A DNA stretch of 62,075 nt, the filler included. It is 15 parts of 15 records of this genome, joined end to end, with 100 filler letters (N's around TTAATTAATTAA, not from the genome) between each part and the next. Parts side by side here need not be neighbours in the genome. Positions count along the whole stretch, not along the records: positions 1 to 3,988 come from SRR7504441_10984; positions 4,089 to 7,854 come from SRR7504441_10985; positions 7,955 to 11,028 come from SRR7504441_10992; positions 11,129 to 15,812 come from SRR7504441_10996; positions 15,913 to 19,691 come from SRR7504441_10997; positions 19,792 to 25,144 come from SRR7504441_11022; positions 25,245 to 30,197 come from SRR7504441_11023; positions 30,298 to 34,099 come from SRR7504441_11024; 7 more parts are not named here. One strand, written 5' to 3'. Position 1 is the stretch's first letter; each line of letters starts with the position of its first letter. The notes beneath the pieces are model-generated. The model was not told the origin of the DNA. It searched no databases and saw only the letters and a list, made by a program, of their open reading frames with translations. Shown piece after piece: positions 73-57,916 of this stretch. Both the position numbers and the translations under genes were made by a program.

Positions 73-2793
73 ATGTTGCGGCTGACCCGCCAAACAGCGC
101 TGGCCGGGTTGCGGCTGACCCGCCGCTCTAGGCCTGCCACCCAGATTCAGATCTGCTGCATCGCCTCGGAGCCGAGCCGCCTGCCGTACGAAGGCGTCAG
201 GATCCTCGAGAAAGGCAACCTGCTCAGCGGCAGGCTGGCCGGCCTGCTGTTCGCCGATCAGGGCGCTGAGGTGCTGGTGCTCGATCCTCAGCAGGGCGGC
301 GATAGTGACAGCTACCTGAACCGGGGCAAGACCAAGCTTGACTCGCTCGAGAACATCTCGCTGGCCTCGGCGGACGTCATCATCATGGATGGGGAGGACG
401 ACTCGCTGCCACGGCTACCGCACCAGATTGTGCTCCGGACGGTGGCCGGTCTGCCCGGCGACCCTGTGTTCGGGGACCTGCCGGCTGACATCGATGAGGA
501 CTATTTGAGCGCACTCACCGGGTTTTTCACCGACATGGATATGATGGGCTGGTTAGATCGCCCGGTCACCTACACGCCTCTCAAGCTCTGCTCCATCTAC
601 GCCGGAGTGATAGGAGCCAACGCCACGGCCGCCGCTCTGGTCGATCGGCTGCGGTGCGGTCAAGGCCGCGAGATCCACACTTCACGGCTGGCGGGTGGGC
701 TGTCAGCGATTGGGGCTTTGTGCTTGAAGCAGACTGGACTGCCTGAGCACCTGAATCCAGCACCGGCGATATACAAGCAAGCCGCCGAGATCCTGGTGAA
801 GCGCAAGGGGCTCGAGGCGGATCAACTTGAGGAGTACAAGCGGCAGGCGATTGCGGATCCTGCCAAGCAGGCCTGGCTGTTCCAGAGACTCTATCCATTC
901 ATGGCGCCATACAAGTGCAAGGACGGTGAATGGATCCTGCCGATGGCAACGTTCAACCGGAGGCTGGCGGTGGGGTATTGCAAGTACATGGGCTTCACCG
1001 AGGAAGTCGAAGCCTTCGGGATCGTGGATAAAGATCCGTACGGTGCTCCAAGCCAGTACGCCGTTGCTAAGAGCCGGGGGTTGCAGATCCAGCCAGCATG
1101 CCGTTTGACGACCGCAACCTTGTAACCAGTCCAACCAGCGGCCGACTGATCCGACCTGGCAGGCGCTCCCGATGGGTTTCAACTTTGCCTCGTCCTCCAA
1201 GTGCGCTGAGCTGTTCGAAGCAAAGTTCTTGGACAAGTCCGCCGCCGAGTGGGAGGCTCAACTCGAGGCCTCCGGGCTGCCATGCGCCAAGATTCAGTCC
1301 TGGGAAGACTGGTTACAGGACCCGGACGCCAGGCGCTCCCGGGTGGTCACTACCGTTGGCGGGGAGGTCCAACTCGGCCGGAGCGCGTGGACTCGGTCCG
1401 CGGGAGAGTACCCCGATTTGAAAAGCTTTGACACGGATCCTGCCGAGGTGCCTTTTGGGCTGCAAAAGCAACTCGCGGACAACTTGGCCTCAAAGGAGGC
1501 CAAGCCCCGTCCGTTGGAAGGGTATGTGATAGCTGACTTTGCGAATGTGATCGCCGGGCCGGCCTGTGGGCGGATGTTTGCCGAGCTAGGGGCCACTGTG
1601 TATAAGCTAGGCCCTGGTGTGCCTCAGGTCCGAGCCGCCGGGCTGAGTGCCTGAGCTGGGGCGCAGCACGGCCCGATGGTGATGATGGTCTGGCAAGCCG
1701 AGCTGCATCAGGGCAAGAAGTCGATCATTCTAGACAAGCACAAGCCGGCCGCGCTCGAAGTCATTCAAAAGGCGATCAAGAAGGCCGATGTGATCCTGCT
1801 CAATAAGATGGACAATCAGCTGGCCAGCTTGGGTGTCAACCGCGAGGTCGGTTAGGCATAGGTCCCAGCTGAGCCGGCTGCAGTCGCTGGACGTGACCAA
1901 CCCAAAAGCAATCTTGCTTCAACTCAAGTCACACCAGGGTGAGCGCTATTCCGAGCGTTCGAATTGGAACGGTGCGCTGCCAATCATCACATGCGCATGA
2001 CCTCGAATCGCTGGCAGGCTATGATCCCGCGCTTCAAGGCAAAACCGGGCTCATGACACGATTTGGACCGCCTGGATGCCCAAACTTCCATGGTGTGGCG
2101 TCGTGTGTGGACTACCTCACTGGATACATGGCCATGTGGGGAGGGCTGGCGGCCATCTACTCGCGCGACGACAGGAAGAGCACGGCAGGCGACTGGGCTG
2201 TGACCTCGCTTGCCACATGCGCCTCGCTCACACAGCTCACGCTCCAGAAAGGCGAGCTGCCTGCCTCTGCGGTCGGGTGCAACGCTACTGGGATGACTCC
2301 GTACGCGCGAGTGTTTGCTGTAGACGGGCAAGACATGCACGGGGCCCAGCGATACATCTACGGGCAAGTGCCTGAGTCCACAGATGTGGCGGCCCTGGAA
2401 GAGCAGCTCAAGACCATGCAGGTGGACGAGGCTGTGGCGCACTTTGAGAGCTCGTTCGGGACACTCGCAGTCCAGGTGAACACCGTCAAGGAGATAGCAG
2501 AGCAATGCTCAGACGGCCGCAGCACGTCGGCCAACTTCAAACAGAAGGACGCCGGGCAAGGATGGGTGGTCGAGACCTGGGAGCCGACCTGGTTCTGCTT
2601 CGATGGGAAGCCACTGTCCTGCCCGAGTCCGCCGACTTTCTCTGGGTCGGATGCGGAGGCCGTGCTCAAGGAGCTCGGATACTCCAAGACAGAGATCATG
2701 GGGCTGCAGCAGTCCCGGGCGGTGGTGCCTACGAATTGGCATAAATGGTGCACCGACAATAATGATAATCTGCTCGAGGAGGGCTTGGAGTGA
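73..2793 (+). CDS. Double-domain class III (CaiB/BaiF) CoA-transferase, DddD-like, with probable mitochondrial presequence; 5 introns
   Basis: Two CaiB modules (GVRIL...FADQGAEV...LNRGK and DFANVIAGPACGRMFAELGATV...GKKS). GT-AG introns at 1043-1086, 1122-1162, 1628-1666, 1847-1883 and 1972-2017 restore one frame. The second-domain catalytic-type motif is NGYDPALQ. The N-terminus is Arg-rich and lacks acidic residues. Confidence 0.88.
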
Positions 2794-3054
2794 GTATAAG
2801 TACCTCATACGAGTCAGTATAAGATAATAGAACAGCCTCCGGCGGAGGCGCGTCGATCTCTACATGTAATTTTGGGTTTTGTTTGAACATTTTGTTTATA
2901 TAACAATTATACATGACATTGTAGTCGGATAAACGGATGGTTCAAGCACTTATAATTACTGACTTGCATTAGGTGTAGTGTCAACTAGATATCCATCGTA
3001 TCACTGATAGTGGGTACTAAGTAACTCAGTACTAAACTTACAACTAAGTGGCTG

Positions 3055-3988: not shown

Positions 3989-4088
3989 NNNNNNNNNNNN
4001 NNNNNNNNNNNNNNNNNNNNNNNNNNNNNNNNTTAATTAATTAANNNNNNNNNNNNNNNNNNNNNNNNNNNNNNNNNNNNNNNNNNNN
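3989..4088. other. Artificial contig-joining spacer (44 N + TTAATTAATTAA + 44 N); first of 14
   Basis: An identical 100-nt linker with stops in all six frames lies at 3989-4088, 7855-7954, 11029-11128, 15813-15912, 19692-19791, 25145-25244, 30198-30297, 34100-34199, 38287-38386, 42591-42690, 46187-46286, 49661-49760, 53161-53260 and 58002-58101. Genes are cut mid-ORF at these points. Confidence 0.98.
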
Positions 4089-7854: not shown

Positions 7855-8160
7855 NNNNNNNNNNNNNNNNNNNNNNNNNNNNNNNNNNNNNNNNNNNNTT
7901 AATTAATTAANNNNNNNNNNNNNNNNNNNNNNNNNNNNNNNNNNNNNNNNNNNNGGAGGTGGACCGACAGTGTACTACATGGCGTTAATTAGTACTATAG
8001 CTAATTGTACATAATTGACGATAACTAGCATGATAACTAGTCTACTACAGTGCCAGTGGACTGACTGAGTAGACTCTTACTGTACTTGTATACGTACTTG
8101 TACAAGTACTGAAGTTGAGGCAGTTGAGGTGTGGTTGGCCAGAGGGGCGTGCGTGCAGCG

Positions 8161-9623
8161 ATGCCGGCGGCTCGCGAGAAAGGCTACAAGGGCTGGATCC
8201 GAGTGAAGGACAAGTTCGGCGGCCAAACCTGGCAGCGAGCCGACCGCACCCACGGCGACCTCGACCACCACCCCTCCCGCGGCGGCTGGCGGCCGACCGA
8301 CGGCCCGAGCTCCGACCGCGACAACGTCTGGGTCTCATACGACGACGACGACGGCGATGTCCGTTGGGGTAACGGACACCAACGGCTCCGGCGGTCGACC
8401 AGCCCCCGGCGCCCGCCGAGGCGCCGCTCGCCGAGCCCGAGCCGCCGGTCAAAACAGGAGCACGGCGCTCGGCGGCCGGCGAGTCCGGTGCGGCAACGGC
8501 CGGGTTACGAGTTCTCGGCGGCGCAACGGAATGTGCAGGAGGCGGCGGCCGAGCTGGACGAGGTTGAGTTTTATTTATCCGAAGCCAACGCCTCCGGGGA
8601 TGGCGCGGGGGTGGCGGCGCTGGAGGGGATGGTGGGGGCGGCGCGCGAGCAGCTGGCGGAGGCGAAGGTGGCGATGATGGATTTGGAGGCAAGGGAGGCG
8701 GCCGCGGCTGTGCAGGCGGTGGAGGCTCGGGCGGCGGCGGGCGACTTCGTGGCTGGTTCGGAGGTCGAGGCTGCGAGGCAGAAGCATCGAAACGCCGTCG
8801 TGATGCTGGGAAACGCGCTCGGGCATGAGATGGCGATGGCGCCGTCCCCGCCGCCGGCGGCTGGGCTGGTGCACCACCACCACCCGCCGGCTGGCGTGGA
8901 GGTGGAGCATCTGCGGGCGGCGCTGGCTGCTTCGGAAGCCGACTCGATTATGGCCAAGTCAGCACTGCAGATGGCGGCGACCGACTCGGCGAGGGGTGCT
9001 CCAACGGATGTTAACGGAATTTAACGGCATTGTGGTAGGGGCGGAGCACGCGATGCAGCTGGAGGCCGAGCTCGGTCAGGTGGCGATTATCATTTAACGC
9101 TATTTTTAACGCTGTATTTAATGTTATTGATGTTGGATGGCAGGCCGTGAACACGGAGCGCGCTATGAGCGAGGAGCTGAGGTGTGTGGATTAGTGTCCG
9201 TTAACGCGGCGAGCCGTTGGGGCAGGTTTCTGCGGCAACGAGCGTGCGAGAGCTCGGCGGCTTTGATTTCGCTCACTGAGGAGTCTGAGGGCTTGCACCG
9301 GCAGGCGATCGAGGCGTCTATATATAGTACTTTACAGTACAGTGTGTAGTATATATACACACACTATAGTACTGTAGTACTGTAGTACTAGTGTACTGGA
9401 GGGGTCTGAAGGCTTGCACCGGCAGGCGATCGAGGCGCTGCACGACCTTGGCGTCCCCCCCGCCCAAGGCCCCCCGATGCTGATGCCACTCAGCCCGCCG
9501 CCGCCGCCAGGGTTGCCACCAGTCAGCCTGAGCGGCCCCCGAGGCCCAGACCCGGCAGAGATGGCGCGGAGGGAGGCCATAAATCAGCTGCAGCTCTTGT
9601 GTACGCACTTGGAAGGATATTAG
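8161..9623 (+). CDS. Hypothetical RS-rich/coiled-coil protein; 4 introns
   Basis: Introns at 8996-9038, 9080-9143, 9182-9225 and 9305-9425 (GC-AG) give a continuous frame ending LCTHLEGY*. Confidence 0.65.
9275..9437 (+). repeat. About 42-bp exon duplication flanking a 78-bp AT-rich quasi-palindromic insert
   Basis: actgaggagtctgagggcttgcaccggcaggcgatcgaggcg (9275-9316) versus actggaggggtctgaaggcttgcaccggcaggcgatcgaggcg (9395-9437). Confidence 0.92.
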
Positions 9624-9916
9624 CCCGTGGTAGTCTAGTAGAGCTATTATAGAGCTGTTACTGCAATACTGATCTATGCGCGGATGACTGAATACGGGAG
9701 CTTACTGTACTTACTAAAGACAGACTTAGTACTATGTACGTGTAAGCAACGGTTATGGCTTGAGCTTCTAAGCATGTATATTTTAATAACAACCACCAGT
9801 ATGCGATCACGCGCACCTGGGTCTTCATCCGCGCCCTTGTAAGCACTATTGTAAGTACATAGCGTGTTCTACAAGTCATGTACGACACCGGCGCCAGCGA
9901 AGCCGTCATGCGCTGC

Positions 9917-11028
9917 TCAGATCAGCATGTCGCCCTTCTCGTGAAAGTGCAAATCAAACAGCCGATGCACCTGACAAAAAGTCCGTTAATCTCCGTCGAA
10001 ACCCCGCCGCACACCACGGCGTGCAGTGCGCTGTCGAAGCCGTCCAAGAACTCCTGCTTGGTCACCACTTGGTCGCCGTCCGCGTCCAACTTTAGCATGA
10101 AAAAGTCGGTTAGCTGGCTCTTCACTTCGGTCTGCACAAAGTTGTTGTTCACCACCTGAAAACACCAAGAAAGTCCGTTAAAGTCTGTTGGTTTCTGTTA
10201 AAATAACCGCGCTCCGGAGCACTTGCTCGCGCTCGGCGGGTGAGAACGGCCAGTCGGCGATGATGTGCTGAAGCCCGTTGGCAAGAAACCGGTTCATGAA
10301 CCTGCGACCACCGGCATAATAATCAAATACTATATCTAATAATAATAATAATCAATTGATATTAATATAATCACCGGAGCGCCTCGTCGGAGCCCATAAC
10401 GCCGTCCTTGTTGGCGTCGTATTTCTTCCAAAGACCTTCCTTGAGCGCCGCACTCTCCTGTACAACCCCGCGCGCTCAGCTAATAACAATAACTACTACT
10501 ATTTACTATCATTAATCAATTAAATAAACCCACCTTGATCCATGCAGTGGCCGTGCCCATGTACTCCCCCGCCGGTTTCTTCGTCGCCGTGGCCTTCTCC
10601 GGCGCCGGCTCCTCCAGCGCCGCCGCCACCGACGCCATCGCCGCCGCCACCGCCGCCGGCCCGTCCGACGGGGCAGACGCCGCCGCCGGCTTGGGCTCCT
10701 TCAGGTGCTCTCGCTCAGGATCATTCATCGCCTGAAAAACGTCCGTTAACGTCCGTTAAAATCCGTTAAACAGCCCACCTTGAGTTTAGTCAGCCGCTTC
10801 TCTCTCTCAGCGTCGGAGGCTTCAATGTCCTCCTTCAGCTTGGCCACGCGGGCGGCCTCGGCCTCCGCGTCCTTGTGCGCCTTCCACTCCGCATCCTCCT
10901 TCGCCGCTCGCGCCGCCAGCTCGGCCGCCGCCGCCTCCGCCTGCCGCTTCTTGAGCTGAGCGGCCTCGAGCGCGGCTTTCTCGGCATCGGCCGCCTTTTG
11001 CTGCTTGGAGGCCGCGTGCAGCTCGGCC
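9917..11028 (-). CDS. EF-hand protein with an Ala/Glu/Lys coiled-coil N-terminal part (5'-truncated); 5 introns
   Basis: EF loops DANKDGVMGSDE and DADGDQVVTKQE. GT-AG introns at 10732-10778, 10458-10533, 10302-10374, 10156-10207 and 9971-10014 restore the frame; ends GDMLI*. Confidence 0.8.
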
Positions 11029-11128: not shown

Positions 11129-14100
11129 GATACGGATCAAGATCAGGAATCTGATGAAAAAGAAGGCTGAGCGCAAGCAGAAGGCGACACCGGCTCCAAG
11201 CATAGCGCCTACTGCCATCCCGACTGTGGTACCAACAGCCCAGCCCTCCTCAACCCCGACTTCTGCAGCCCCAACAGTTGACCAGGCAAGCATTGAAAGA
11301 AAGAAGAAAAAGGACGTTGACGAGGCTGCAGCGAAGAAAGAGGCAACTCTTGAAACAAAAACAAAGGAGGGTGAGCAAAAGGAGGCTAAACAAAAAGCCC
11401 AAGAGCGCAAGCCGAAGGAGAAAGTCGAGAAGAATAGGCGTAAACAAGCTGTAGAGACGCAAAATAAAGAGGCAGATGAGAAGAAGCTTGAGCGGCTCGA
11501 GAGCAAGAAGAAACGCACTAAGGAGATCAATGAGAAAGCCAAGCAAAAGGTTGATGAGAAGAAGCACAAGATGGAAGAGAAGAAGGAAAAAATCACAAAG
11601 GTGATGAAGCGGAAGGCGATGCGCCTGCAGAAGGAGGCAAAAGAAAAGGCAGACGAACGAACCCCAAAGAAGGAGGGCGAAGAGAAAGCTGAACGAAAGA
11701 AGAAACGGGCCATTGAGGAGGCTGCAGCCAAGAAGCAGGCAGCGTTGGAGAAGCAGAGCAAGGAGGACGAGCAGAAAGAGACTGCACAAGCTGATCAGGA
11801 AAGCCGCGCGAAGGAAACAACAAAGAAAACACAGGAAAAGCAGGCTCAAGAGCGAAATGCAAAAGATCAAGTCGAAATCCAGGGGCAAAACTTGAAGCTC
11901 CAAGAAGAGAAATTGAAGAGCTCACAGCCTGTGACACCAGTCACCAAGAACGAGTATGACAAGGCACTCCAACTTCAGCGTGAAATGGCAGAGAAGCAGC
12001 AAGCAGCGGAGGCAAAGCAAAAGAAGCGCGAGGACCTCGACGCGAAGCGCATGTTGTCTTTAGAGAAGAATGGGAAAGCTCAGATGCAAGCAAAGGAGAA
12101 GAAAGACAAGCTAGCAGTGATCAGAATCAAAATGATGAAGATAGAGAATGACAGGAAAGAGCGCAAGGAGAAATGGTCCGAGCGCAGTCCTAAGAAGGAA
12201 AGCACTCGTAAGGCACTGGAGAAAAGGCTCACTGCAATGCAGAAGAGTTCTGCGGAGGAGCAGGCTGCCTTGATGAAGCTGTCTAAAGAGGCAAAGAAGG
12301 AGGAGGAGCAAGCTGTGCAGAGGCAGCGACAGGCTGCTGCTGTGGTACGTGAGGCGGAGGGTCGTGAAGCTGCAAGCAAAGAAGAGGCTAAGAACCAAGC
12401 TGTGGAAGGCCGGCGAAAGACTCAGCGACGGCAAGCACACGAAAAGAAGGTAAAAGATACAGTGCAAGAAGCGCGGGAACAAGCTAGGGAGAAGCAGAAG
12501 AAATACGAGTGGATTCAGTTCAAGCTCAGGCATCAGCAGGTCGAGGACGATGCAAAGGTCGAGCAAGGCAAAATTCGAAATGACAAGCTGCGAGAACAAG
12601 CCAAGGCTATGGAGAATTCGCTCAAATTTTCACAAAACAAAGTCTCCAAGTGGGAGTCAACAGCGTCAAAATATTCTCAAAGAGAAGCAGCTTATAAGCA
12701 AAAGATTGCTATATCGACCGCCGCTTCACAGAAGCAGGAGGTTGAGACAAAACTTGCCGAAAATACAGCTCACGAGACCCGAGCTAAGGCTCAGGCCGGG
12801 AGCTCCATGACCAAAATGCTAGTAGCAGCCCAGGCACGAGAGGCTATGCGGTTGCGGCAGAAGGAAGGAGCACTCAAACAGAAGCTGGCGTCCTTGTCAA
12901 GGAAACAGTACCGTGAGAAAGGTGCCAAGAAAGAAGCAAAGACAGAAGAGCAATGCGGCATAAGCAAAGGACGGGTGACTGCTATTCTCAGTGGAAAGAT
13001 TGTGTCAGGAGATAGCGACAGCAAATTCATCAAGGAGCTGAAGGTCGGCTATGAAGTGACAATTGCTGGGCAGCAATTCATTGTGACCGCTATCGAGTCT
13101 GAACAGACGTTCCGAATCAACTGTAAATTTGATGGCGATATCAGTGAACCTCAGATCATGAGGTATTGTAAGCGTCAGGCAGTCCTACCAAAGGTGGAGA
13201 TCCCAGAAGGCTTTGTCCAGATGGGTGACGCTGTTACCCGCACAATGACTTCTCGTCATGGCTGCACTGCAAGATTTTCAGTAGTGACTGCAAGCTGCGA
13301 TCAGGCTCCAATGAAGGGCGATTACTTTTGTGGGTGCAAAAAGGGCGGCTTGATCGCGCTCACTGCGAGCAGTGTCCGCACTGCCCATATTCCTGAATGC
13401 ACTTCTTGGTACTCTCACGCACTAGAGGTGCAAGAAGCTGAGAAAGTCAAAGCACTGCAGGGCCTGGCTCAGTTCTCAGCTGGCTGGGCTGAAACTTGTC
13501 TGGTGGGAAATTCCACTGAAAAGGAATTCAACAAAGAGCTTCCAGAACCCAACCGATGGTTACATGGAATGCGAAACCTGACCAATGGCTACATGTATGA
13601 CTGGGCACAGAAGCCGGTTCAATTGCCATATAAACACGAGGACAATGGCAAATTGATATGCCAATCGAATTTCGTTGTTGGAGTGGCTGTTTGCAATGCA
13701 AAGAAGCTTATGGAGAATAACACAGCATTGATTGGTGGTTTGAGCAGCGTGTTCCAGGGCTGTAAGGGCAAGCTGATGACATCAGAGCTCTATGGACAGA
13801 TTGTGTACATGCAGAATCAGCAGCCTCAGACCCAGCGGCTGTGTCTCCGTAAACACACTGAGTGGGCAAACGAGGCAGCCAAAGCCCAGAAACGGGTCTC
13901 AGAGACCTTGCAGACTGTGCTTGGCAAAATGACAAACTTGACTGAACCTGTATGTGAAGTGCATACAGTCAGTCAGAAGGATGCGAGGCTACTGGCTCAT
14001 GAAGTCAAGGAGCAAAGCGACAAGACTCAGGCTACTCTGAAGCATTACAGGGACCGCTCAGAAGCCCTTTCACTTGAGCTGGAAAGTCTGAGGAAAAAGC

Positions 14101-15701
14101 GATCGGTTGGTGAAAAGAAAATCAACCAGGAAATTCAAAAACAAAAGGCAAACGAGGCTCAGGAAAAGGACAAGCTAGAATCGACTGATCGATTTGAAAA
14201 GCCAGGTGAGGCTCATGCAATGCTACAAGCACAGGAGAAAGAGGCAAAGCAGTACCAAGTCCAGCTCACAGCAGTGCAAGATAAAGCAATGCGTGCAAAT
14301 GAGAATAAAATGCGCGAGCGGTTAGAGCACGTACAGAAGCTGCTGGTCAAGACAAAGGACATAGAAGCAGAAAAGAGAACAGTCTCTGAGAAGGAGAAGA
14401 AGAAGATCGAAAAGACAAAGATCACCGAGATTGAGGCTCAGGTCGACAAGATGGAAGATGAGGAGTGTACTGAGCAAAAAGTCGAGAAGGGTGTCTCAAA
14501 GGACATCAAGGCGCAGAAACAACGATTGAAGGGTACGATAAGAGCTGCGCAGCAGATGGAAGACGAGAAGGAGCAACAACATTCACAGTTCCAAGCGACG
14601 CTGACAAAGGAAAAGACTGATGCTGAAAAGGAGGCAAGAACCGAGAAGCGCAAATTTGAAGAGAAGCAGCACGAGCTGAGCCAGGCGAAGATTGCAATTC
14701 GTAAGGACTCGGAGAAGCAAAAGAGGGACAGTAAAGTGGAAATGGATAAAGCAGTGTCGCAAGCTAGGACCGAAGGAGCGCAAGAAGCCCAGCATCAGTC
14801 TGAGCAGCTGCTGGTAAAGCAGGAGAGAAACACCAAGAAGATGGAGAAGGAGATGATGGCTTCTCAACAAGTGTCCATCCAGCAGGCTGAGCTTAAGATG
14901 CAGCGCGAGATGCTGAACGAGAAGAAGAAGCTGGAGGCACTCCTAGTCAAGAAGGAGCAGGGCAATTCCAGTGCTGAGACGGATGCTAAGATTGCCCAGC
15001 TGCAGAAATTAGTGACTTCAACAGAGGAGCAGAATACTGTCGAGGCCGAGCTGAGCCGCACTCTAAAGCAGAAGGAAGCAGGGGTGAAGCAAGTAGAATT
15101 AAAGGCTCTTGCGATCAACAAACAGACTCTACAGTCTCTTGAACGTGATGAGCGCAAGAAGAAGAGCCGGCACCCAATCGAGCGCGCCGAACGGGCTGAG
15201 CAAGGGTACAGAGCCGCCGAGAATAAGGAGAATAGTAACAAGGCGAATCTCCCGGAGGTGAAGGTGAAGACGCAGGAGGTAACAGCCAAGCGTGGTGAGC
15301 TGTCCCGGCGAGCCAAGGGTCGTGTGGAAAGCATCAGCCAGGAGGAGGAGGAGTCCAAAGTCAAGCTGGAGCAGGCGGCTCGGACCCAGGCTCTTACCGA
15401 CGAGCAGCTCCAAAAGGAAAAAGCCAAGAATAGATTGCTGCGACACCAGCAGCAGAGGACAGCTGAGTTGAAGCTGGACAGCGAGCAAGGTGTTGCCAAG
15501 GTGATCCAACAGTTGCATGCCCTGCGCGGACATCTGAACTCGAGGAACACGACAGCAGAGGCGCTCGCACGTGGCGAAGCGATCTTGGAACACAATCGGA
15601 AGCATGTCACTTTGAATCACACAGGAAGACACCCGGATGACCGACTTGAGATCCGCCACGACAACGATAATAATTATAATAATAACCAAGATAACATTTA
15701 A
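11129..15701 (+). CDS. Giant intronless K/E/Q-rich coiled-coil protein with a PT-rich linker and central Cys-rich domain (5'-truncated)
   Basis: Uninterrupted ORF of more than 1515 aa with a strong purine bias on the coding strand. Confidence 0.85.
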
Positions 15702-16025
15702 GTCTGTCACAATGTCATGATTGTGGCAGACGCTCTAAAACACGTGTTAATTAAATAAAGCATGGTGAACTATCATACACGCTGTATTTTGTCCTATTAG
15801 AGTACCTACTATNNNNNNNNNNNNNNNNNNNNNNNNNNNNNNNNNNNNNNNNNNNNTTAATTAATTAANNNNNNNNNNNNNNNNNNNNNNNNNNNNNNNN
15901 NNNNNNNNNNNNCTCTGAAGCTGGCACCTTATGAAATTTAAGGTTTCTTGGACATAGCTACCGTAATTTATCTGACGCCCGTGGTCCCGCACGATCGTGG
16001 GCGCGGGGACAACCAGCAGATCTAG

Positions 16026-19000
16026 ATGAAGAAGAAGGTGGACTCGCGGGTGCGGGTGCTGCTGGAGAACGGGACCAAGACCGGGCACCGGACCATGTTC
16101 CTGATGGTAGGCGACCACGGCAAGGACCAGGTCGTGAACCTCCACTACATCCTGTCCAAAGCCAGCGTACGCACCCGCCCGTCGGTGCTTTGGTGTTACA
16201 AGAACGACCTCGGATTCAGCAGTCACCGAAAGAAGCGGGTTAAGCAAATTAAAAAGCTCCAGCAGCGCGGGATGCTGGACCCCGAGAAGGATGACCCGTT
16301 CGAGCTGTTTGTGGCTTCGACCAAGATCAGGTATTGCTATTACAAGGACACCCAGAAGGTGCTCGGCAACACGTACGGGATGCTGGTACTGCAGGACTTT
16401 GAGGCGCTCACCCCCAATATCCTGGCCCGGACCATCGAGACAGTGCAGGGCGGCGGGGCCATCATCTTTCTGCTAAAGACGATGGGTTCGCTCAAGCAGC
16501 TGTACACCATGGCCATGGACGTGCACAGCCGATTCCGCACCGAGGCGCATCAAGACGTTGTGGCCCGGTTCAATGAGCGATTTATCCTGTCGCTAGCCTC
16601 ATGCTCCAACTGCCTCGCTCTCGATGACGAGCTCAACATTTTGCCAATCACTGACCAGATCCAGCGGATCAGGCCAGTCCATGGACTGGTCGCCACCCCA
16701 GATGGGTCGGTCCACTTGACCGCCCGCCAGCAGGAGCTAATCGAGCTCAAGCAAACGCTCAAGGATACCCAGCCGATCGGATGCCTCGTGGAGACCACGA
16801 GGACGGTGGACCAAGCCCGCGCCCTGCTCACCTTCACGGAGGCAATATCGGAGAAGACCCTCCGGTCCACAGTGGCGCTCACCGCCGCGCGCGGACGTGG
16901 CAAATCGGCTGCGCTCGGAATCGCAATCTCATCAGCGGTGGCGTTCGGCTACTCCAACATTTTCGTGACCTCTCCGTCTCCCGAGAATCTCAACACTCTG
17001 TTCGAGTTTGTGCTTAACGGACTGGAAGCACTCCAGTATAAGCGGCACATGGACTACGAAGCGATAGAGTCCACCAACCCGGACTTCAACCGGGCAATTG
17101 TGAGAGTGAATATATTCCGTGACCACAGGCAAACAATCCAGTATATCATGCCACAGGACCACGCCAAGCTGGCTCAGGTGACCGCTCTGCAGCTGTCCGT
17201 TGACCGCCGGCAGGCCGAGCTCGTGGTGATTGATGAGGCTGCAGCCATCCCACTCCCGCTAGTCAAATGCCTTCTTGGGCCTTACCTTGTCTTCCTTTCA
17301 AGCACAATCAACGGCTACGAGGGCACAGGACGCTCGCTCTCGCTCAAACTGATACAGTCGCTCCGGCTGCAGTCGGGCGCCGGGTCCAACGCCCGCACCC
17401 TCCGCGAAGTGTCACTGGATGAGCCTATCAGGTTGTGTTGGCTGGCCATTGCTCAGCCAGGGAGACAGGTACGCTCAGGATGACCCAGTTGAAGCTTGGC
17501 TTAACCACCTGTTGTGTTTGGACGCTTCAGCCACCTCGATCACTGGTGGCTGCCCGTGTCTGCTCTTTACGAGTGTGTGCTCAGCCTCACATTGCCCACC
17601 TCCCTCCCAGTGTGAGCTGTATCACGTCAACAGGGACACACTCTTCTCCTATCACAAGGCAGCCACTGCGTGCTCGACAGACTAACTGGGCGGTGCCAGG
17701 CCTCTGATCTGTTTCTAGCCCGGATCATGGCGCTGTATGTGGCCTCGCACTATCGGAACACGCCAAATGACTTGCAGGTCCCTCTCGCCTCCCGGCTGCG
17801 TCAAACATTGGGCAGATGATGTCGGACGCACCAGCGCATCAGCTCTTCACGCTTCTGGGGCCTGTAGAGCCCGGCTCGAGCTCGCTCCCCGACATTCTCT
17901 GCGTGATGCAGGTGGCAGTGCGCATCAAACCGGCTTGACAGTCATTGGTGAAGGTGTGCTTTGAGGGAGAAATCTCAAAGGAGAGTGTCAGAAAGCAATT
18001 AGCCCGTGGCCAGCGGGCCGCGGGCGATTTAATCCCGTGGACATTAGCACAGCAGTACCTAGATAACGAATTTGCACATCTATCTGGAGTGCGGATTGTT
18101 AGGATTGCCACTCACCCAGACATGACACGAATGGGGTGCTTCGAGCGCTCAAAGCTGGTCTGACTAAAGCTTGCTGCCTGCAGCTACGGTTCGCGGGCGA
18201 TTGAGCTGCTCACTCAATACTTCGAGGGTCAGTTTGGTAACCTTGCCTCTCCAGGCCCAAATCCATCAGCTGCAAAAGATAACTCTGAGGAGAACCAAGG
18301 GCTGAGGCACGAGAAGCTCCGACCCCGGGCTAAAGTGCAGCAGCTACTCACTAGGTTCGTCCGCTGGGGTGATAGCTGGCGCCTCATGGCTGTGCAGGCT
18401 GTCGGAGAGGCCAGCAGAGAGGCTGCACTGGATGGGCGTTTCATACGGCGTGACAGAGCAGCTTTACGGGTTCTGGCAGCGCGCAGGCTACACTCCTCTC
18501 TATGTGCGACAGACAAGCAACGAGCTGACTGGTGAGCACACATGCATCATGCTCCGAGCCATCCAGACCGACCAGGTACTGGCACACGCCAGCTGTTGGA
18601 GCAACCATCTGCAGGTTGAGTCTGGTTGGCTTGGTCGTCTATTCAGTGACTTCCGCAAGCGCTGGATGGTGCTGCTTGGGTGATCTGAATAGCAGCTCGT
18701 ATTACATGCTTGGCGCAGGTTTGAGTTCCGAGACTTCCCTGTGGCCCTGGCACTGGAGATGCTCAAGAATTCTGGCACTAGCCCCTATCAACGGCGGGTG
18801 ACCACTTGTTGTAGTTGGACCACGCGATGAACCTGTTGGGGACGAATTGTCGGATTCAGAGCTCAACTTTTGGTTCTCGCCGTATGACCTCAAACGCCTC
18901 GAGTCATATGCCAACAATCTAGTGGACTACCACATGATCATTGATCTCGTTCCAGCACTTGCGCGGATTTACTTTGAGCACAAGGTGCCATCAGTGGTAC

Positions 19001-19588: not shown

Positions 19589-19908
19589 ACATAGATGTGT
19601 ATAAGATGTGTAACTCGGAAACTCGGAAAACTCGGCCGAGTTCGGTCCTTGGGGGTCTAACCAGTGATTCCACGATCATGAGAAATTAAGTNNNNNNNNN
19701 NNNNNNNNNNNNNNNNNNNNNNNNNNNNNNNNNNNTTAATTAATTAANNNNNNNNNNNNNNNNNNNNNNNNNNNNNNNNNNNNNNNNNNNNCTCTTACAC
19801 GAGCTCAATGGCTCGTTGATTGCTTGCGAGTCAGTAAACGCGCATTTCTAATGTGGGCCTTAGGCCCCCGACTTCCTAATAAATGTACTTATTACTCGTA
19901 TGATTGTA

Positions 19909-21354: not shown

Positions 21355-21481
21355 TGCGGGCACTGGTGAGATGCCCCGCCACAGCCGCGCTAGGGCGGCG
21401 TCCCCAGATGCAACCTCAGGCTTGTTGGGGAGTCAGCAAAGTTTTTAACGGCAAAGAACCGGCTGAGCTCCAGTGTTCCCG

Positions 21482-21533: not shown

Positions 21534-21536
21534 AAC

Positions 21537-36266: not shown

Positions 36267-36322
36267 GATGAGTAACGGACGGATGACCGGATTCACCGGA
36301 TTGGGGCACCCCACTGCAGGCA

Positions 36323-38683: not shown

Positions 38684-41600
38684 ATGGAGGGACGGAGCGC
38701 GCTCAGCGTCCCGCTGCTCGAGACACCCGCACCGGCTGAATCAACGGGCAGTCCGCGCGGGTCCGCCCAGAGCACCCCCCGGAACAACACAGTGAGCTCG
38801 GCGGTGTTCACGAGGATCCAGAGCCTCGATCCCGAGGAGATGCATCAACTCTTTGACAAACGTGCGGCCCAGGCCGGCCGGCCGACCGGGGGGCAGACGA
38901 CCGGGACAAGACCGGCAAGATCAACACCGAGATGGAGCTGCTTCACCTCACGCTGGGGGTGATCCTCAAGCAAGGGCTGGACATCGATGTAGCCCCCGGG
39001 GGACGGGCGGGGGGGAGACGGGCGGGGCAGGCCCAGATGGTGATGCACAAGGTGACCGGGATGCACGACCTGGAGCTCAACCCGCTTGACCTGCCCACCT
39101 TTGCCACCTGGTTCGACCGCGAGTTCCTCGGTGCGCCTCCAACCTGCCCGCCCTCACCTGGGGCCGCAGTTGCGCGCTCCGACGAGTCGCCGCCTTCGAG
39201 CCCCCGCAACCGAGCCGATTCGGGGGCCGCATCCCCCGCAACCTTGCAGCTGTCGTCGCATGACGTCGTGCGTGCTGGCCCTGCGTCCAAGCGCCGTTCG
39301 GGCCCTGGGGCCAAATGGTATGAGCGGAGCGAGTTCCAGCCAACTTGGCGGCGACTGTGTGTGCAAGTAGCCACTAAGCTGCCCGAATGTCTGGGCGAGA
39401 CCACTATGCATAAGGATGACGGGACCACGGAGACGGTTCCGCTGCTGAAGAGCCAGTACGCGAGCTTGTCTGTTGGTGAAGAACTGGTGGCATTTGCGAT
39501 GGTCGAGCATCTGTGCTACGAGTCCGAGAAACAAGTCGAGATCTTCGTCAAGCGCAAGGGCCCGGGCAAGAGTCGGGTGATGGTCCACTGGCATACCGAG
39601 AACGTCGACGTGATGGCGGTGCGGCCCCTAACCGTACTGCAGAAACATTATTACTAGTACAAAGTACATACTATTCAGTTTGAAGCACGCTGTGTGACGT
39701 TGGGTGCGCAGGAGTCTTACGAGCCGCAGCAGGGCGTGCTCCATATGGAACCGAACGAGTTCAAGGGGTCTTTCTTGATCACGCTGTATGACAACGATGT
39801 GCCTGCCATCCGTGCGCCGCCTGAGACTCTGCAACAGGTGTGGAATCTGGAAGAGAAGATGAGAGTGAGGCTGAGTGACCCAGTCGGTGCCAGCCTGGGC
39901 GAGCTGGACGTGACCACCCTGGTCATCCTGAACGAGGACGTATTCCCTAACGGAGAAGACGTCCCCAGTGTCTCTATGATGTTTTCTGACTGCTTCCGGT
40001 GGCTGCGGCGCGGGGGCACACCAAGGTCACCAAGGTCACGAGAGGCATCCGATCGCAGCTATCACGTCAACAAGCGCGGAAAATGCGAGGGTGCGTGGCT
40101 CGCGAGCGCTGGGCTGACAGTTGTGGCAGGGCTGGATCTTACTTTGGCGTTTGCGAGCCAGATGATGCATAAATACAGAGACGAGTTCATTATGCTATTC
40201 AAACTGCAGTTTTGCCCGAGCCTATTCTGGCTGGCCACCAAGGTGACGCTCCTTGTGGGTGTGAACGCGGTTACTGAGCCCGATGGCCACGAGGTACTAT
40301 TGTCCATTATTCATTCATTATTATTTATTGACGGTCCGTGGATAGGGCACCCTCTGGCTTGTGGCCGGCATTTTCCTGGTTGGGTTTGTCATCTGGTTCT
40401 TTGGATCCGAAATGACCTCGCAGACGCGACTTACGGACAAGATCACCCGGCTGCTCCTGACCTTCGTGGTCGGGAGTAACATCCAGCTGACCAAGCGCGA
40501 AGAGGAGAACTTCTCCGAGGGCAAAGTGCTGCTGCTGGCGAACGAGCATGTACGAGATGCTATGGAGGGCTGCGTGACCGGGATGCTAGAGATCTCCAGG
40601 AGCGTGATCCAGCTGGTTTTCATGACGGCCTTTACTGTCTACCTGGCGTGGAACAAGGTCTACCTGCTCTTGATACCTGTGGTCCAGTTGATCGTCGATG
40701 GGTTGATTGTGAGCTATCGGCTGAGGGAGGCATCTCAGACGCTTGAAGAGGATATCTCGGTCAATCATCGGTGGATCGACAGACTCTCAGAGATGTCTAT
40801 GTACCGGCACGTGATCACCGCCTATGCGGAGGGCACAAGGTACATCCACACTTTCGCCAAGGAAGTCGAGGAGTCGGACGACAACAAGTTTGATGGAGAC
40901 TCGGCTCGGCTGCACACCATGCAGTTTGTCAAGGGCATCCACTCGCTGCTGTTCATCAGTGCGCTCGTGTACGGTGGACAGGCTGTGCTGGCTGGGACTA
41001 TGCGGGCCGGTATCTACGTGGCGCTGCTCGGAACAATCCGAGACTACGACGGGAACATCCAGGAGCTGATGGACTCGATCTGGGAGTTCATATCATGCTC
41101 AGAGAGTGTCGAAGCACTCGGCGAGCTCTTAAACGCCGACACTCGACGGAAAGTGCGGCTTTCGGCGTTCCGGTCCGGGCAGCTCAAGCTGCCTTTCCTG
41201 TCGTCGGGCAGCACCAACATCTTCATGCAGAATCTGAAATTCAGCCACAAGGTGGGCGAGGGCCAGCCGGCGGTGCTGCTTGGCCCGATCTCACTAGAGA
41301 TCCAGCAGGGCCAGATCGTGGTGATCACCGACTCCGCAGAGGTCCAGGGCAAGAAGACGCTGCTCCAGCTGTTCGCTGGGACCATCCTACCCAAATCCGG
41401 ATCGATCGGCGTGCCAGGCAATCTGCGCACAATCTATCTCCCACCAAATCCGGTGCTGCTCTCTGGCACGGTGCTCTCCAACCTGCAATTCGGCAACGTG
41501 CGTGGCGCGGGCACGCACTCCAATAGCGAGATCAAGGCGCTGTGCGAGGCGCTGGGTTTGAGCCAGAGGCTGTGTGACAATATGGACACCGAGGTCGGGG

Positions 41601-46667: not shown

Positions 46668-48134
46668 TCACTTCTCGTGGAAGGTACTGAACGTAAGGAC
46701 TGATGTGGAGAATGGGCTAGTTGCCCAAACCTCCAAGCGCTCTCCAGTCTCAGCATCTGCCGGTCCAACTGTCATCGCCGGGCAGGCTGGGCAAGTCGCA
46801 CCGTATGTTCGGATGGTGTTCTTGTCATTCACGAACAACTTCTCCGCATCGTATAGCATGCCAAGAGGATAAGACAGCTCCTTGTCCTCGAAATGCTCCA
46901 CGTATTTCCCTGCCATACTGTCACGCGCCGACTTGACAGGGCCGGCCACCCTCAAGATCGAACTTGACAATCACATTTCCAGCATACGGGCCAGTAGCGT
47001 AGAGGTACTTGGTAGAATCACCAGTTCCGAACGCCATGCCATTGGCATAGTTGACCTTCTTGTCGGTGATCTTAGCAGAGCCTGCGCACTTGTGCGTTCC
47101 GTTGTTGGCCATTTTGTACACTCCATCGTTGTACTCACTGCCAGCCAGCAGCTTAGACCAGCGCATTGGCCCCGCAGGAAAGACCTTGTCCCATAGATGT
47201 CGGACGATGCCACACCCTCGGACGAGTCTGGCCCGACGACGACCTCAAACACACCGTCGACGCCCCCGCAGAACTCGCCGAGCGGTGCGCCGGTATACGC
47301 GTTGTACATGTTGACACTGTTGGTGTTGAAGCTGGCCGCAAGAAGCATGGGTTGGTCTCTCGCGGTGGTGTGCCTCGACTTCCCGTTGTAGAATGTTAAC
47401 CCACGCGGGCTTCCGGGTACGCTGGCGAACTTCTTGATGAATGTGCCGTCGCACGCATCGTACTGGAGGAGACTGCCCCCCCCCCCCCTTAGCATCGGCA
47501 GTCGATAGATGAAGCCACCTCTTAGTTCCCTCGCTCGCGACGAGCACGGTGCGCGGCTGGGCAGGATCGTCGAATGTGTTAAACTTGATCCCCCACGGAT
47601 GCTTGAGTCCGCCGCTCCCGGGCTGGATGAAGACATCCACGTACTCTTTGGTGGCGTAGTCAAACTTGAGTACCTGGCTGTTGGTGTAGTCCGAAACGAA
47701 CAGGTACTTGCCTGCCCGCCGGATCAGCCGGCTTCCAAGCCCGGCCGGGGCGCACGGGTGTTCTGGGTAGTGATGGAGCTCGAGGCGTCGCTCTTGGGCG
47801 ACTCCTCTCCGTTCTTGTTGACAGCGGTGTAGTGGAAGATGTATGAGGTTGTCTTCTTGAGACCGGTGACGAAGTAATGGATGGAGGTGGCCTCGTCGGC
47901 GAAGTTCTCAGCGAGCACGACCGCCATCTTCTGGAGCGTCTTGCCCCCACCGGTGGCGTAGACTTGGTACCGGTGGATGTCTGTATCGGTGTGTTTGTTG
48001 AACGAGACTCGAACTCCGCACGAGGACGCCGTGGTTGCATCTAGAGTAGGCGCCAAGGTCGGCTTGGCGGGCGTTGCACTTGCGGCAAGGGAAAGCTGAG
48101 CCACGAAGGCTATCTGGAGGAACTTGAACGCCAT
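46668..48134 (-). CDS. Secreted fibronectin type III + NHL-type beta-propeller protein; 5 introns
   Basis: Signal peptide; FN3 motif VTGLKKTTSYIFHYTAVNKNGEES; blades LFVSDYTNSQVLKFD, FIQPGSGGLKHPWGIKF and GSPRGLTF. Introns at 47712-47755, 47473-47518, 47138-47184, 46910-46949 and 46757-46801. Confidence 0.85.
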
Positions 48135-55050: not shown

Positions 55051-55225
55051 CAGTAAACCAGTTTTTAATAACGGTTCGCTAGCTATCATTTTTCAACTGG
55101 CAAGTTGTTTAGCTCGTGCAGCAGGTACAAAGTCTCAGGTCACATCAGGTCACAATGTCATAAAGTAGATCTACAACATTACTAGAGCATTCCACTTGCC
55201 ATGGCCTGCCCCGACCAATGCAAAC

Positions 55226-57916
55226 TCAAACCTTGCGAGCCGCAGGATGCACCGCAGCACGCTGTTTGTGCGCTTCGAGGTGCTCGGCCGACCACAGCGA
55301 CACGCCCAGCTGGTCCTGCATGCTGCGTTAGGAGCCGGGCAAAGGGCACAGGACCTCCTTGAGCAGTGGCTGCGCCATCTCACGGAGGAAAGTCTTTGTG
55401 ATCATGAGCGCCTCGTCGCTCGACAGACTTTGATCGCCCTCCAGAAGCGTATCCCTCACCCACTTTGGCAGTTTGTCCCGCTTGTCGCTCCGCGAGTAGC
55501 GCTGATCGGCCAGCACCATGATCCCGTAGTCGGCCTTGGAGCGGACTACCCGTCCAAGGCACTGAGACGCCTGCCTAATGGCGTCGAATGTAAGAAAGTC
55601 GCCCTCGGAGATCTTGTGCTTTTCGCGCATGTAGGCCAGCCGCGCCTTGAGCACGTTGGACTCCGTGTACTGAAACGGCACTCCAATCATCACCACACAC
55701 CGACCATAGTGCCGGTCAAAATCTATCCCCTCAGCCACCTTGCCCCTAGCCACCTGCCTCTCGCTCAGCCTCTCACCGGCACCAACAGCTCACCGAGAAG
55801 AAGATCGCTCCACGACCGCTGTCGCACGCCCGCCGGTAGTTTTGAAGCGCCAGGGAAGTCTCGAGCATGTCGGTGGTTTCTATAAATAAGATCTTGTTTG
55901 CACAGATCTTCTCGAGCGCATGTGTCTTGTGCCACTCATTTATGATCTCCTCCATGTATCTATACGAAGTGAAGAAGCACACCATCCCATCCGGCACGAT
56001 TGCTGTCAATTCAATAAGCAGATGCGCGTAATTATTCACCACCGCCGCGTCACTTCGCACCTCAAATTTGGTCGATATGGGCACCTGATCGCTCCCACGG
56101 GCCACGATTACTGGGTGAATACAATTGCGTGAGAGAGACATGGGGAGAGACTTGGCCACCACAGGCCGGATCCCGAGGATTTTCTCATAGAACCCAATCG
56201 GCGAGAGCGTGCCAGAGGTGATGACCACAGACCGAAACTTCTCAAGCACCGGCTTCATAGCCAACGAGGCGTCGTTACAACACAGCTGGAGCACAGGGTT
56301 TGGCACGTTCGGGTAGCGCTCGTCGATCGGTTCGATTATCACCGCAAACCCCTCCGTGTAGGTACCCACCTGTGGCCGATCAGGCGCGCCAGCGGCGGGC
56401 GGGCACCAGCGTGGCGAGGTCGGCTACCAGGTTGATTGGCGTGAACTCGTCCATATCGGCCACCTCCAGAGTCTTGAACAAAGTCGAGAGCAGCGACGAG
56501 CAAAACCTTCCAACCCGCTGCGGCCGGTCCGGCACCCGTGGCACCGTAGCGTACGAGCATCCACCCCGCCGACAGCCGCCCCAGTCTCTGTGTAAAGCCG
56601 CTGTCGGAACTCATTCTGTCTTTCCACTCAGCAGAGGCGTGCAGGCGGGAGCATACCGGGGTCTCCTGGGTGAAGCTGACCGAGTGTAGCCGGTCTTTAA
56701 GGTGGTACACCACCCGGCGCATCACCGAGATAAAGTTCTGGGCCTTTCGAATGTTTCCCGGGATCGCCTCCTGGATTAGGTCCGGCGTGAGCACAGGGTT
56801 CGCAAACACTGTCGGATCCGTCCCCGAATTGCCGCTAGAGAGGCCCTGCAGCAAGCTCTGGAACTCATTCCGGAGCCGCTGCTCGTCTAAAGATCGAGCC
56901 TGGCCAGCCGTCAGCGGGCCATTGGCCAGAGAGCTGCCTTATCAACTTCTGAGGAAAGCTTGGACAGATTGGCCGAAGCGCGGCTGAGCGTCTGTTGGTT
57001 GACGGCCACTGTCATGACCTCAATGCACACGTTGTCTATGTTATGGGCTTCGTCAAACACCACCTGCGCTGCCGGTGCGCCCGAGCCGTGCCCCGGCTGT
57101 CACCACAGAATTGTCGCACAGTTCCCTCGATATCAGGTTGGAGATCTTTGGGTCCAACACATACTGATAATTATACACAATTATATTCGCCCGCGCCATC
57201 ATTCTGCCCCGGGTCACCGGCGCCCGAGCCGCTGGCAGCACCGGCGGGCCAGAAAGTAGGGGCATATCGCCTTCTGCTGGCCATATGCTTTGATATCCGC
57301 CAGCGAAAAGCACCCCAGCGGCATTGCCCCGTCAGCCCCTAGCTCCTCGAGATCCTCATAGAACGAGCACACCGGCACCGAGCTGTCGCGCGCCTTGGCC
57401 TCCCGCACCCACGGCGCGGTCAGATTCCGGCATTGGGCGTCGCACTTCTCGCGCTCCGAGTCTGCGCTCACCGTCGGATGGATGCACATGTTTCTCCGGG
57501 ACGAGAGCCCGAGCGCCAGTGTGGCCGGGGCCGGGCCGCCGAGCTCCTTTGCCCGGTACTCGACCACCACCTTGGCCTCCTCGAGCACCTTGTCAATCTC
57601 CGGGACAGTCCTGGTGCAGTACACCAGCCGCGAGACCGCTGGGTTGGCCGCCTGGTAACTGGTGATCAGGCTGAGGATCGTGACGGTCTTCCCAGTGCCT
57701 GTGGGCATCTGCCAGCCCCTGTCAGCCCCAGCCGGGCTCCGGGCCCACCTCGAGGCAGGCGTGCCCGCCCTGGGCGCCGCCGGTGGTGTTTGTGGCCCCG
57801 ATGTTGGTCTGCCCGGCGTCCAGCGCCCGCTTGAGCTCGAGCATGTAGCTGTACTGCTCCGGGTACACGTAGTCGTACGGGAAGAGCACCTCCAGGTCCT
57901 CCACCATGAACCGCAT
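55226..57916 (-). CDS. ERCC2: TFIIH helicase XPD/Rad3; 9 introns
   Basis: [75 protein letters not shown]. Introns at 57709-57748, 57204-57241, 57064-57103, 56900-56937 (GC), 56616-56656, 56507-56544, 56370-56406, 55754-55793 and 55316-55354. Confidence 0.97.

Follow-up and report, generated by a model that had tools for sequence, protein, structure and literature searches.

The DNA discussed here, hereafter the window, is a stretch of 62,075 nt made of 15 contigs of 3-5 kb from a marine eukaryotic genome bin, and not a single locus. Its genes are interrupted by very short introns, which are most probably genuine U2-type spliceosomal introns of near-minimal length with GY-AG borders (Y, pyrimidine), spliced by intron definition in an uncultured marine picoeukaryote. 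Most start with GT and roughly 13-23% with GC, and on the contig that carries the NAT10 gene they are precisely removed from mRNA. Verification against RNA or homologous proteins was obtained for 31 introns of four genes (NAT10 13, XPD 10, a carboxylesterase gene 5, and an RCC1-like gene 3): all measure 36-48 nt (median 40, mean 40.1, standard deviation 2.9), and every one of them begins with GY and finishes with AG (24 GT, 7 GC). In support of this reading, the products spliced in silico align without gaps at the junctions to their homologues, NAT10 with P0003, XPD with P0121, the esterase with P0241, and the RCC1-like protein with P0361.

Regarding the RNA evidence, metatranscriptome contigs were aligned to the NAT10 contig only (15913-19691, 3.8 kb). 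The aligned contigs come from four RNA libraries, which represent three samples and two studies. They contain 10 joints that skip 37-48 nt, and with two loose ends, those of two samples support 12 of the 13 NAT10 introns; these 12 are all 36-48 nt long and all GY..AG within the allowed junction shift, and 8 of the 10 joints are GT..AG after the permitted shift. The gene and its introns are as follows, with X1 and X3 denoting metatranscriptome runs and P0003 a homologous protein.

15913-19691, plus strand: contig 5 with the NAT10/Kre33 gene, coding sequence 16026-19588, 13 introns, 1010-amino-acid product once spliced
17178-17213, plus strand: intron, 36 nt, GT-AG, in frame and stop-free; an X1 contig ends at 17178 and its 8 loose letters equal 17215-17222; 12-residue gap against P0003
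17432-17468, plus strand: intron, 37 nt, GT-AG (GTTGTG); X1 RNA joint 17428>17466, cut moved by +3
17546-17584, plus strand: intron, 39 nt, GT-AG; RNA joint in X1 and X3
17659-17699, plus strand: intron, 41 nt, GC-AG (AG|GCAGCC), CTAAC branch 14 nt from the 3′ end; RNA joint 17656>17698
17778-17815, plus strand: intron, 38 nt, GT-AG (GTCCCT); required by the frame and by ungapped alignment to P0003; no RNA joint
17912-17953, plus strand: intron, 42 nt, GT-AG; X3 RNA joint
18136-18183, plus strand: intron, 48 nt, GT-AG; X1 RNA joint
18355-18397, plus strand: intron, 43 nt, GT-AG (GTTCGT); an X3 contig starts at 18396 and its 12 loose letters equal 18341-18352; spliced alignment
18576-18614, plus strand: intron, 39 nt, GT-AG; X1 RNA joint
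18680-18718, plus strand: intron, 39 nt, GT-AG; X1 RNA joint
18775-18814, plus strand: intron, 40 nt, GC-AG (TG|GCACTA); X1 RNA joint 18773>18814
19070-19116, plus strand: intron, 47 nt, GT-AG; X1 RNA joint
19317-19357, plus strand: intron, 41 nt, GT-AG, CTAAC branch; RNA joint in X1 and X3

Both GC-AG introns of NAT10 are fixed by their joints: 17656>17698 was listed as AG..CC with four ambiguous letters, and GC..AG is its sole AG-ended placement, while 18773>18814 was listed as GG..TA with one ambiguous letter, and a shift of +1 gives GC..AG, again the sole placement. At the protein level, removal of 12 introns leaves 1022 amino acids that are 74% identical to P0003 over residues 1-1014 and gapless at all 12 tested junctions; the only gap, of 12 residues (product residues 385-396), is the 13th intron, 17178-17213, which is in frame. 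The gene has the Pfam domains TmcA_N, NAT10 helicase, GNAT_acetyltr_2, and tRNA_bind_2. Its introns are skewed toward the 3′ end, with 1 in the first 1.4 kb of coding sequence and 12 in the remaining 1.6 kb; the usual bias of intron-poor genomes is toward the 5′ end, the opposite of NAT10 here. One X1 RNA contig also lacks 20 nt at the NAT10 stop and 3′ untranslated region (19584-19603), within a short direct repeat, and this is probably a strain indel and not an intron.

As for the other three genes, their introns were placed with a protein-to-DNA spliced aligner run in three modes, one agnostic (any dinucleotides), one GY-AG, and one GT-AG only. In a benchmark on NAT10, the GY-AG mode reproduced 12 of the 13 true introns. 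Run without a penalty on GC, the aligner made two false GC-AG calls in this gene, both at poorly conserved places, one at 16772-16801, where the RNA is contiguous, and one at 19308-19348, where the RNA gives 19317-19357; GC calls that lack verification should accordingly be treated with caution, and the alignments made after this benchmark penalized GC. For XPD, the spliced alignment to P0121 (779 amino acids) spans residues 0-776 and is 73% identical over the query exon.

55185-57916, minus strand: XPD/ERCC2/Rad3 helicase gene, 10 introns of 37-47 nt, 1 of them GC; Pfam DEAD_2, HBB, and Helicase_C_2
57709-57748, minus strand: intron, 40 nt, GT-AG; agnostic and GY-AG alignments concur
57204-57241, minus strand: intron, 38 nt, GT-AG; spliced alignment to P0121, P0123, and P0133
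57064-57103, minus strand: intron, 40 nt, GT-AG; spliced alignment
56900-56937, minus strand: intron, 38 nt, GC-AG (AG|GCAGCT), CTGAC branch; agnostic alignment with P0121 and P0123
56616-56656, minus strand: intron, 41 nt, GT-AG; P0121
56507-56544, minus strand: intron, 38 nt, GT-AG; spliced alignment
56370-56406, minus strand: intron, 37 nt, GT-AG; spliced alignment
55754-55793, minus strand: intron, 40 nt, GT-AG; spliced alignment
55316-55354, minus strand: intron, 39 nt, GT-AG; P0121 only, in the poorly conserved C-terminus
55206-55252, minus strand: intron, 47 nt, GT-AG; P0121 only

The carboxylesterase and RCC1-like genes were treated in the same way.

30447-32532, plus strand: carboxylesterase gene, 5 verified introns of 36-42 nt, 2 of them GC; Pfam COesterase; spliced alignment to P0241
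31504-31545, plus strand: intron, 42 nt, GT-AG, in frame and stop-free; P0241, P0242, and P0243; missed by the ab initio finder
31649-31686, plus strand: intron, 38 nt, GC-AG (CG|GCACCA); preferred by the closest homologue, P0241, and by P0243
31814-31849, plus strand: intron, 36 nt, GT-AG; spliced alignment
32027-32065, plus strand: intron, 39 nt, GC-AG (AG|GCGAGC); agnostic P0241 alignment compatible with GC..AG
32161-32198, plus strand: intron, 38 nt, GT-AG; all three homologues
32732-34098, minus strand: RCC1-like gene, 5′ end beyond the contig, 3 introns of 40-41 nt, 2 of them GC; weak Pfam RCC1-like match; P0361 44% identical
33238-33277, minus strand: intron, 40 nt, GT-AG; spliced alignment to P0361
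33076-33116, minus strand: intron, 41 nt, GC-AG (AG|GCGCCC); same length as the agnostic optimum, 1 nt off
32891-32931, minus strand: intron, 41 nt, GC-AG (AG|GCGAGT); agnostic alignment gives the exact junction

The residues kept by the GC donors of XPD and the esterase are present, and mostly conserved, in 5/5 homologues each: VDK in XPD, which the GT alternative at 56946 would delete and all 5 homologues tested keep; YNR at 31649-31686, matching YTR or YNQ of the homologues; and VYQ at 32027-32065, exact in P0241 and conserved in four others. Each of these three donors is preceded, at a distance of exactly 9 nt, by an in-frame GT (56946, 31640, and 32018). In the RCC1-like gene, restricting the aligner to GT donors lowers the score by 54 units, counted over two junctions.

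GC-AG introns make up 2/12 of the RNA-supported set, and 3/23 in the two genes that were not picked for GC, NAT10 and XPD (95% interval 3-34%; P = 0.003 if the true rate were 1.3%); 3/23 is the unbiased share, because the esterase and RCC1-like genes were chosen on their predicted GC donors, which inflates the overall 7/31. These fractions are far above 1-2%, the level that a preliminary description of this DNA had set as fatal to its claim of frequent GC donors. The same description considered these donors uncompensated, which is not wholly so, as there is mild compensation: of seven canonical consensus positions, GC donors match 4.36 and GT donors 3.54 (permutation p = 0.005), with the gain at -3, -2, and +3; the three examples that it cited are indeed the weakest ones. 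The enrichment of canonical U1-complementary bases at -3, -2, and +3 argues weakly for an ordinary U1 5′ end. When the gene finder described below was given a flat prior over the 16 donor dinucleotides, it chose GT 35 times and GC 17 times, and 13 others 33 times in total, the commonest being AT at 6; GC thus stands clear of the noise as a real second class of donor.

Besides the inflated overall share, several points weigh against the reading of these sequences as near-minimal spliceosomal GY-AG introns. Protein alignment alone places 19 of the 31 verified introns, the RNA check covering the NAT10 contig. The more distant homologue P0242 favors GT alternatives at both esterase GC sites (31640 at the 31649 site), and the upstream GTs at 56946, 31640, and 32018 may give alternative GT-AG introns of 47-48 nt. 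In NAT10, a contig of the polyA-library run X8 (18754-18933) is unspliced across the GC-AG intron 18775-18814, which X1 shows spliced out; either the weak GC intron was retained or the library contained carried-over DNA. About half of the introns have no recognizable branch motif. Finally, the contigs derive from a bin, and the introns of contig 3 look different.

The most skeptical position is that GC donors and the narrow length range are artefacts of hand placement, assembly errors, or bin contamination, the true junctions being GT-AG. The two false calls of the unpenalized aligner and the concatenation of binned contigs lend it some substance, and it is nonetheless extremely improbable: the RNA joints of two GC-AG introns leave no GT placement, the other five GC donors are backed by conserved residues, every RNA-supported intron falls within 36-48 nt, and an assembly error precisely at +2 in seven introns is not credible.

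Regarding the splice signals in the verified set, donor information totals 6.3 bits, 4.6 of which come from G|GY: exon position -1 is G in 31/31, exon -2 is A in 15/31, intron +3 is a purine in 26/31, +4 is C in 16/31, and +5 is G in only 9/31, with positions +3 to +6 summing to 0.61 bit. The acceptor, GGCAG|GT, carries 7.9 bits (-3 C in 28/31, -4 G in 21/31, exon +1 G in 22/31, exon +2 T in 19/31). No pyrimidine tract was found between branch and AG, positions -12 to -4 being 41% Y, 19% T, and 44% G. The introns are G-rich (37% G), with a mean GC of 0.66 vs 0.59 in exons and GGG at 29 vs 20.5 per kb. The branch motif CTRAB occurs 8-18 nt from the 3′ end in 12/31 introns against 1.24 expected, a count reached in 0 of 1000 shuffles; looser forms (TRA-type) lift it to 14-19/31, and the remainder has no recognizable motif. 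The candidate branch A is located 10-14 nt upstream of the 3′ end; CTRAY is present in ~40% of the introns, a share that rises to ~60% with the looser forms.

How far these signals suffice was measured by ranking, in each gene, the 588-1211 GY..AG candidates of 30-60 nt by signals learned from the remaining three genes, coding information being left out: the top n contained 23 of the 31 real introns. The count dropped to 18 without exon positions -3 to -1 and equally without length, to 19 without intron -8 to -3 or without exon +1 to +3, to 21 without the branch term, and to 22 without donor +3 to +8. Length aside, the exon edges and the 3′ end are more informative than the branch motif. The preliminary description was right about donor positions +3 to +6, which it saw vary freely, about the missing pyrimidine tract, and about the G-rich 3′ ends; its proposal that sites are set mainly by length plus branch point is borne out for length and much less so for the branch, and it had overlooked the exon -1 G, the GGCAG|GT acceptor, and the CTRAY motif 10-14 nt upstream.

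Such a profile raises the question of whether the machinery itself is altered, through the U1 5′ end, the U6 ACAGAGA box, a lost or changed U2AF large subunit, or a length-measuring bridge, with sites set by length and branch point. The scant information at +3 to +6, the +4 C and +5 preferences that would mismatch canonical U1, the absent pyrimidine tract, and the rank of length among the two most informative features all agree with it; even so, it is a doubtful explanation, in that omission of the branch term costs little (23 to 21 of 31), the exon-side positions and +3 agree with the canonical consensus complementary to U1, and do so more closely at GC donors, and the GTGC-type donor and CTGAC branch are also found in the canonical introns of Micromonas, in the part of the literature drawn on here (PMC3879977). 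A search of the 62,075 nt for small nuclear RNAs gave 0 Rfam matches.

Two other routes of excision, structure-guided and by the minor spliceosome, are ruled out by the canonical borders, by folding z-scores centered on 0, and by the lack of U12-like donors (0/63). In detail, U12-type signals ([AG]TATCC donor, TCCTTAAC branch) were seen in 0/63 donors, with CCTTAA in 1/63 introns; for a hairpin pairing the intron ends, as in the nonconventional type of euglenids and Amoebophrya, the mean z was 0.01 with 2/31 introns below -2, and the borders are GY-AG. Two candidate regularities were also rejected. A fixed distance of 27 nt from the 5′ splice site to the branch A appeared in 7/12 verified introns, and the predicted set ranges over 24-37; an expectation-maximization motif, CRGCTS (151.6 bits vs 108.5 ± 5.3), is partly the 5′ half of GCTGAS branch sites and had no clear replication in predicted introns. 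As a separate observation, GCT[GC] occurs inside 24/31 verified introns vs 9 in shuffles (for example, 57709-57748 and 17178-17213), and in 13/32 predicted introns vs 9. The GCT[GC] and CGGCT k-mers overlap in part with GCTGAS branch sites, and they recall the GGCTGG core of the human ultra-short-intron enhancer.

These k-mers bear on the possibility that the introns are introner elements, that is, a recently spread transposon-like family behind the uniform size, the shared motifs, and the AG|GT flanks. The uniform length would fit, as would CGGCT in 9/23 introns against 1.5 expected, the GCT[GC] excess, and the uneven density, with 13 introns in NAT10 and none in a TOG ORF (open reading frame) of 1481 amino acids. 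Yet junction microhomology is 3.13 vs 3.07 for re-paired donors and acceptors, with no signal of target-site duplication; interior similarity is barely above shuffles (mean 6.05 vs 5.58; pairs scoring at least 12, 1.6% vs 0.24%); and in the predicted introns, an independent set, the k-mers are weakly enriched. In addition, the position of intron 17659-17699 (P0003 amino acid 507, phase 0), read as ancient, is common to two distant metagenomic NAT10 loci, L005 and L017, and so to distant eukaryotes; this coincidence is the only one used, as many introns called in metagenomic NAT10 relatives are alignment artefacts. An introner origin is thus very unlikely.

Beyond the verified set, introns were predicted with a gene finder that combines codon usage and signals and was cross-validated with signals trained on the other gene: it gave 11/13 NAT10 introns exactly and none false, and 8/10 XPD introns exactly. 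It replaced an earlier, naive finder that had recovered 6/13 NAT10 introns. For the window, its 27 gene models contain 84 predicted introns, among them 29 of the verified 31; with the two missed ones added, the catalogue holds 86 introns (31 verified, 55 ab initio only), 80 of them 35-48 nt long and 15 with GC donors. The lengths of ab initio introns are biased by the length prior, of which the verified set, placed with no narrow length constraint, is free. The preliminary description had counted about 77 introns, about 67 at 35-48 nt and about 14 with GC, and the junctions that it cited are all present: RNA backs GTTGTG, GTTCGT (by a loose end), and the GC donors of 17659-17699 and 18775-18814, frame and homology back GTCCCT of 17778-17815, homology backs the GC donor of 31649-31686, and GTCGGT and 47473-47518 are ab initio only. 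The predicted introns of note are these.

47473-47518, minus strand: predicted intron, 46 nt, GT-AG, with GCTAAG and then a run of 13 G before CAG; ab initio, required by the frame
1043-1086, plus strand: predicted intron of the CoA-transferase III gene, 44 nt, GT-AG; ab initio only, the acceptor placed at 1092 in an earlier run
1847-1883: predicted intron with the GTCGGT donor; ab initio only
7955-11028, no strand assigned: contig 3, with eight predicted introns of another flavor, AT-rich, 43-76 nt, with TTAACGG repeats

Verified introns fall in phases 0/1/2 as 18/4/9. Ten of the 31 are multiples of three, 4 of those without an in-frame stop, and there is therefore no avoidance of such lengths of the kind known in ciliates. 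The AT-rich flavor of contig 3 is also found at 39634-39678 and 40294-40345 in contig 10; its introns have a GC of 0.25-0.61 and 1-3 copies of TTAACGG each, and 8 of the 13 TTAACGG sites of the window lie at 9011-10769, with 2.8 expected window-wide. Two AT-rich introns occur alongside GC-rich mini-introns in one gene, so that the AT-rich type can be explained without bin contamination.

Regarding the window as a whole, the contigs are joined by 14 identical spacers (44 N, TTAATTAATTAA, 44 N; for example, 3989-4088, 7855-7954, and 58002-58101), and ORFs or genes that span a spacer are artefacts. GC is ~0.47-0.66 per 2-kb segment and ~57% over the whole stretch. In a word search of public runs, parts of 15913-25144 matched only marine or seawater metagenomes and metatranscriptomes. 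Long ORFs carry ordinary eukaryotic Pfam domains, those of NAT10, XPD, TOG/XMAP215, carboxylesterase, sulfatase, CoA-transferase III, ankyrin, WD40, RCC1-like, EF-hand, D123, and RING; Pfam on single exons gave no identification of the PSMG2 and nucleotidase genes that the preliminary description had named. The best named matches are oomycetes for NAT10 (~70%) and green algae for XPD (59%); a quick, unfinished NAT10 tree put the NAT10 sequence from the window with three other sequences, weakly (83) beside streptophytes. A metagenome scan found no NAT10 relative closer than 67% identity, and gene structures differ; a protein atlas search with NAT10 returned generic NAT10 clusters only. Two intronless ORFs of 1523 and 1298 amino acids (11130-15698 and 58103-61996) have a strong skew of A over T and no Pfam match, and probably encode low-complexity proteins.

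As for the mechanism, under intron definition both ends would be recognized jointly over a short distance that is fixed. Recognition of the 5′ site would depend mainly on exon-side and GY(R) pairing, by U1 and later by U5 on the exon, and that of the 3′ site on AG and its adjacent context in place of a pyrimidine tract, in an AG-dependent manner that may involve the U2AF small subunit or SPF45-like modes. T-to-C at +2 would be tolerated because little intronic U1/U6 pairing would be demanded, and GC pressure in a genome of 57-66% GC would let GC donors accumulate. A stronger version, that default splicing has moved from intronic U1/U6 pairing and a pyrimidine tract to an exon-anchored, AG-context, length-gauged recognition across the intron, is speculative and rather unlikely; it might involve a changed U1 5′ end, loss or replacement of the U2AF large subunit, or an SPF45-like factor, and, if true, the organism would offer, across its whole genome, a natural model for the human pathway of ultra-short G-rich introns, which is poorly understood.

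The introns have practical consequences as well. Standard gene finders and spliced aligners assume GT-AG borders, a pyrimidine tract, and a minimum intron near or above 40 nt, and with a genome of this type such tools would break most multi-exon genes of an abundant, uncultured marine protist. The window offers an RNA-backed case in which ~40 nt is enough for splicing, the informative positions lie in the exons and the extreme 3′ end, and GC donors are commonplace. The case is relevant to the minimum donor pairing that the spliceosome needs and to the build-up of GC-AG introns in GC-rich picoplankton.

In comparison with known systems, each ingredient has been described separately before, and this is not a new kind of system; for the exact combination (GC-rich introns of 36-48 nt, up to 13 per gene, branch 10-14 nt from AG, as the default type), no description was found in the open-access library searched. 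Tiny-intron genomes, such as those of ciliates, chlorarachniophyte nucleomorphs, and Oikopleura, have AT-rich introns, often of 15-25 nt or with a peak near 47 nt, and ciliate introns show constraints on multiples of three and on stops. The likeness lies in the narrow length peak near the steric minimum and in intron definition; the difference is that the introns here are GC-rich and show no depletion of multiples of three. Other U2-type subsets without a polypyrimidine tract are known.

In some short introns whose pyrimidine tracts are truncated, SPF45 takes the place of U2AF (10.1101/784868). Human ultra-short introns of 37-65 nt are for the most part rich in G and contain G-runs; their splice and branch sites score weakly, and they have a G-rich enhancer with GGCTGG (PMC4463651). 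The present introns resemble them in their 37% G, in GGG being denser than in exons, and in the lack of a pyrimidine tract; the human introns are a handful of exceptions, whereas here this is the default intron type. With respect to GC donors, the part drawn on here of a survey of high-GC genomes (PMC3033335) reports GC-AG introns at 39.6% in Aureococcus anophagefferens, 22.2% in M. pusilla, and 7.7% in Chlorella sp., tied to genomic GC. Aureococcus and the other high-GC genomes thus share with the window a GC-AG share far above the usual ~1%; the window has ~57% GC, and the same part of the survey gives 56 bp as the shortest species average and describes no ruler of ~40 nt.

There is also a likeness to the Mamiellophyceae (Micromonas, Ostreococcus, and Bathycoccus), marine GC-rich picoeukaryotes; the donors here are G|GTGC-like with a CTGAS branch, and the canonical introns of Micromonas have AG|GTGCGT donors and an NCTGAC branch motif, according to the cited part of PMC3879977. 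A Micromonas gene, however, has few of these canonical introns, and their predicted branch is 43-52 bp upstream, as against up to 13 per gene, 36-48 nt, and a branch at 10-14 nt here. Because the proteins of the window are at most 59% identical (XPD) to those of named green algae, the organism is not a sequenced Mamiellales species. Small introns of the BOC1 type are characteristically restricted to a chromosome region that is an outlier in its low GC. The BOC1 regions of Mamiellales contain many small, AT-rich introns of 40-65 bp per gene, below 43% GC and free of motifs in the passages of PMC3491373 considered here; the verified introns are likewise short, but have 66% GC and clear 3′ and exon-side signals. 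It is the AT-rich introns of contigs 3 and 10 that resemble these small BOC1 introns as there described, and a comparable AT-richness (<43% GC) is confined to contig 3, where 4/8 introns are below 0.43, and to the two introns of contig 10.

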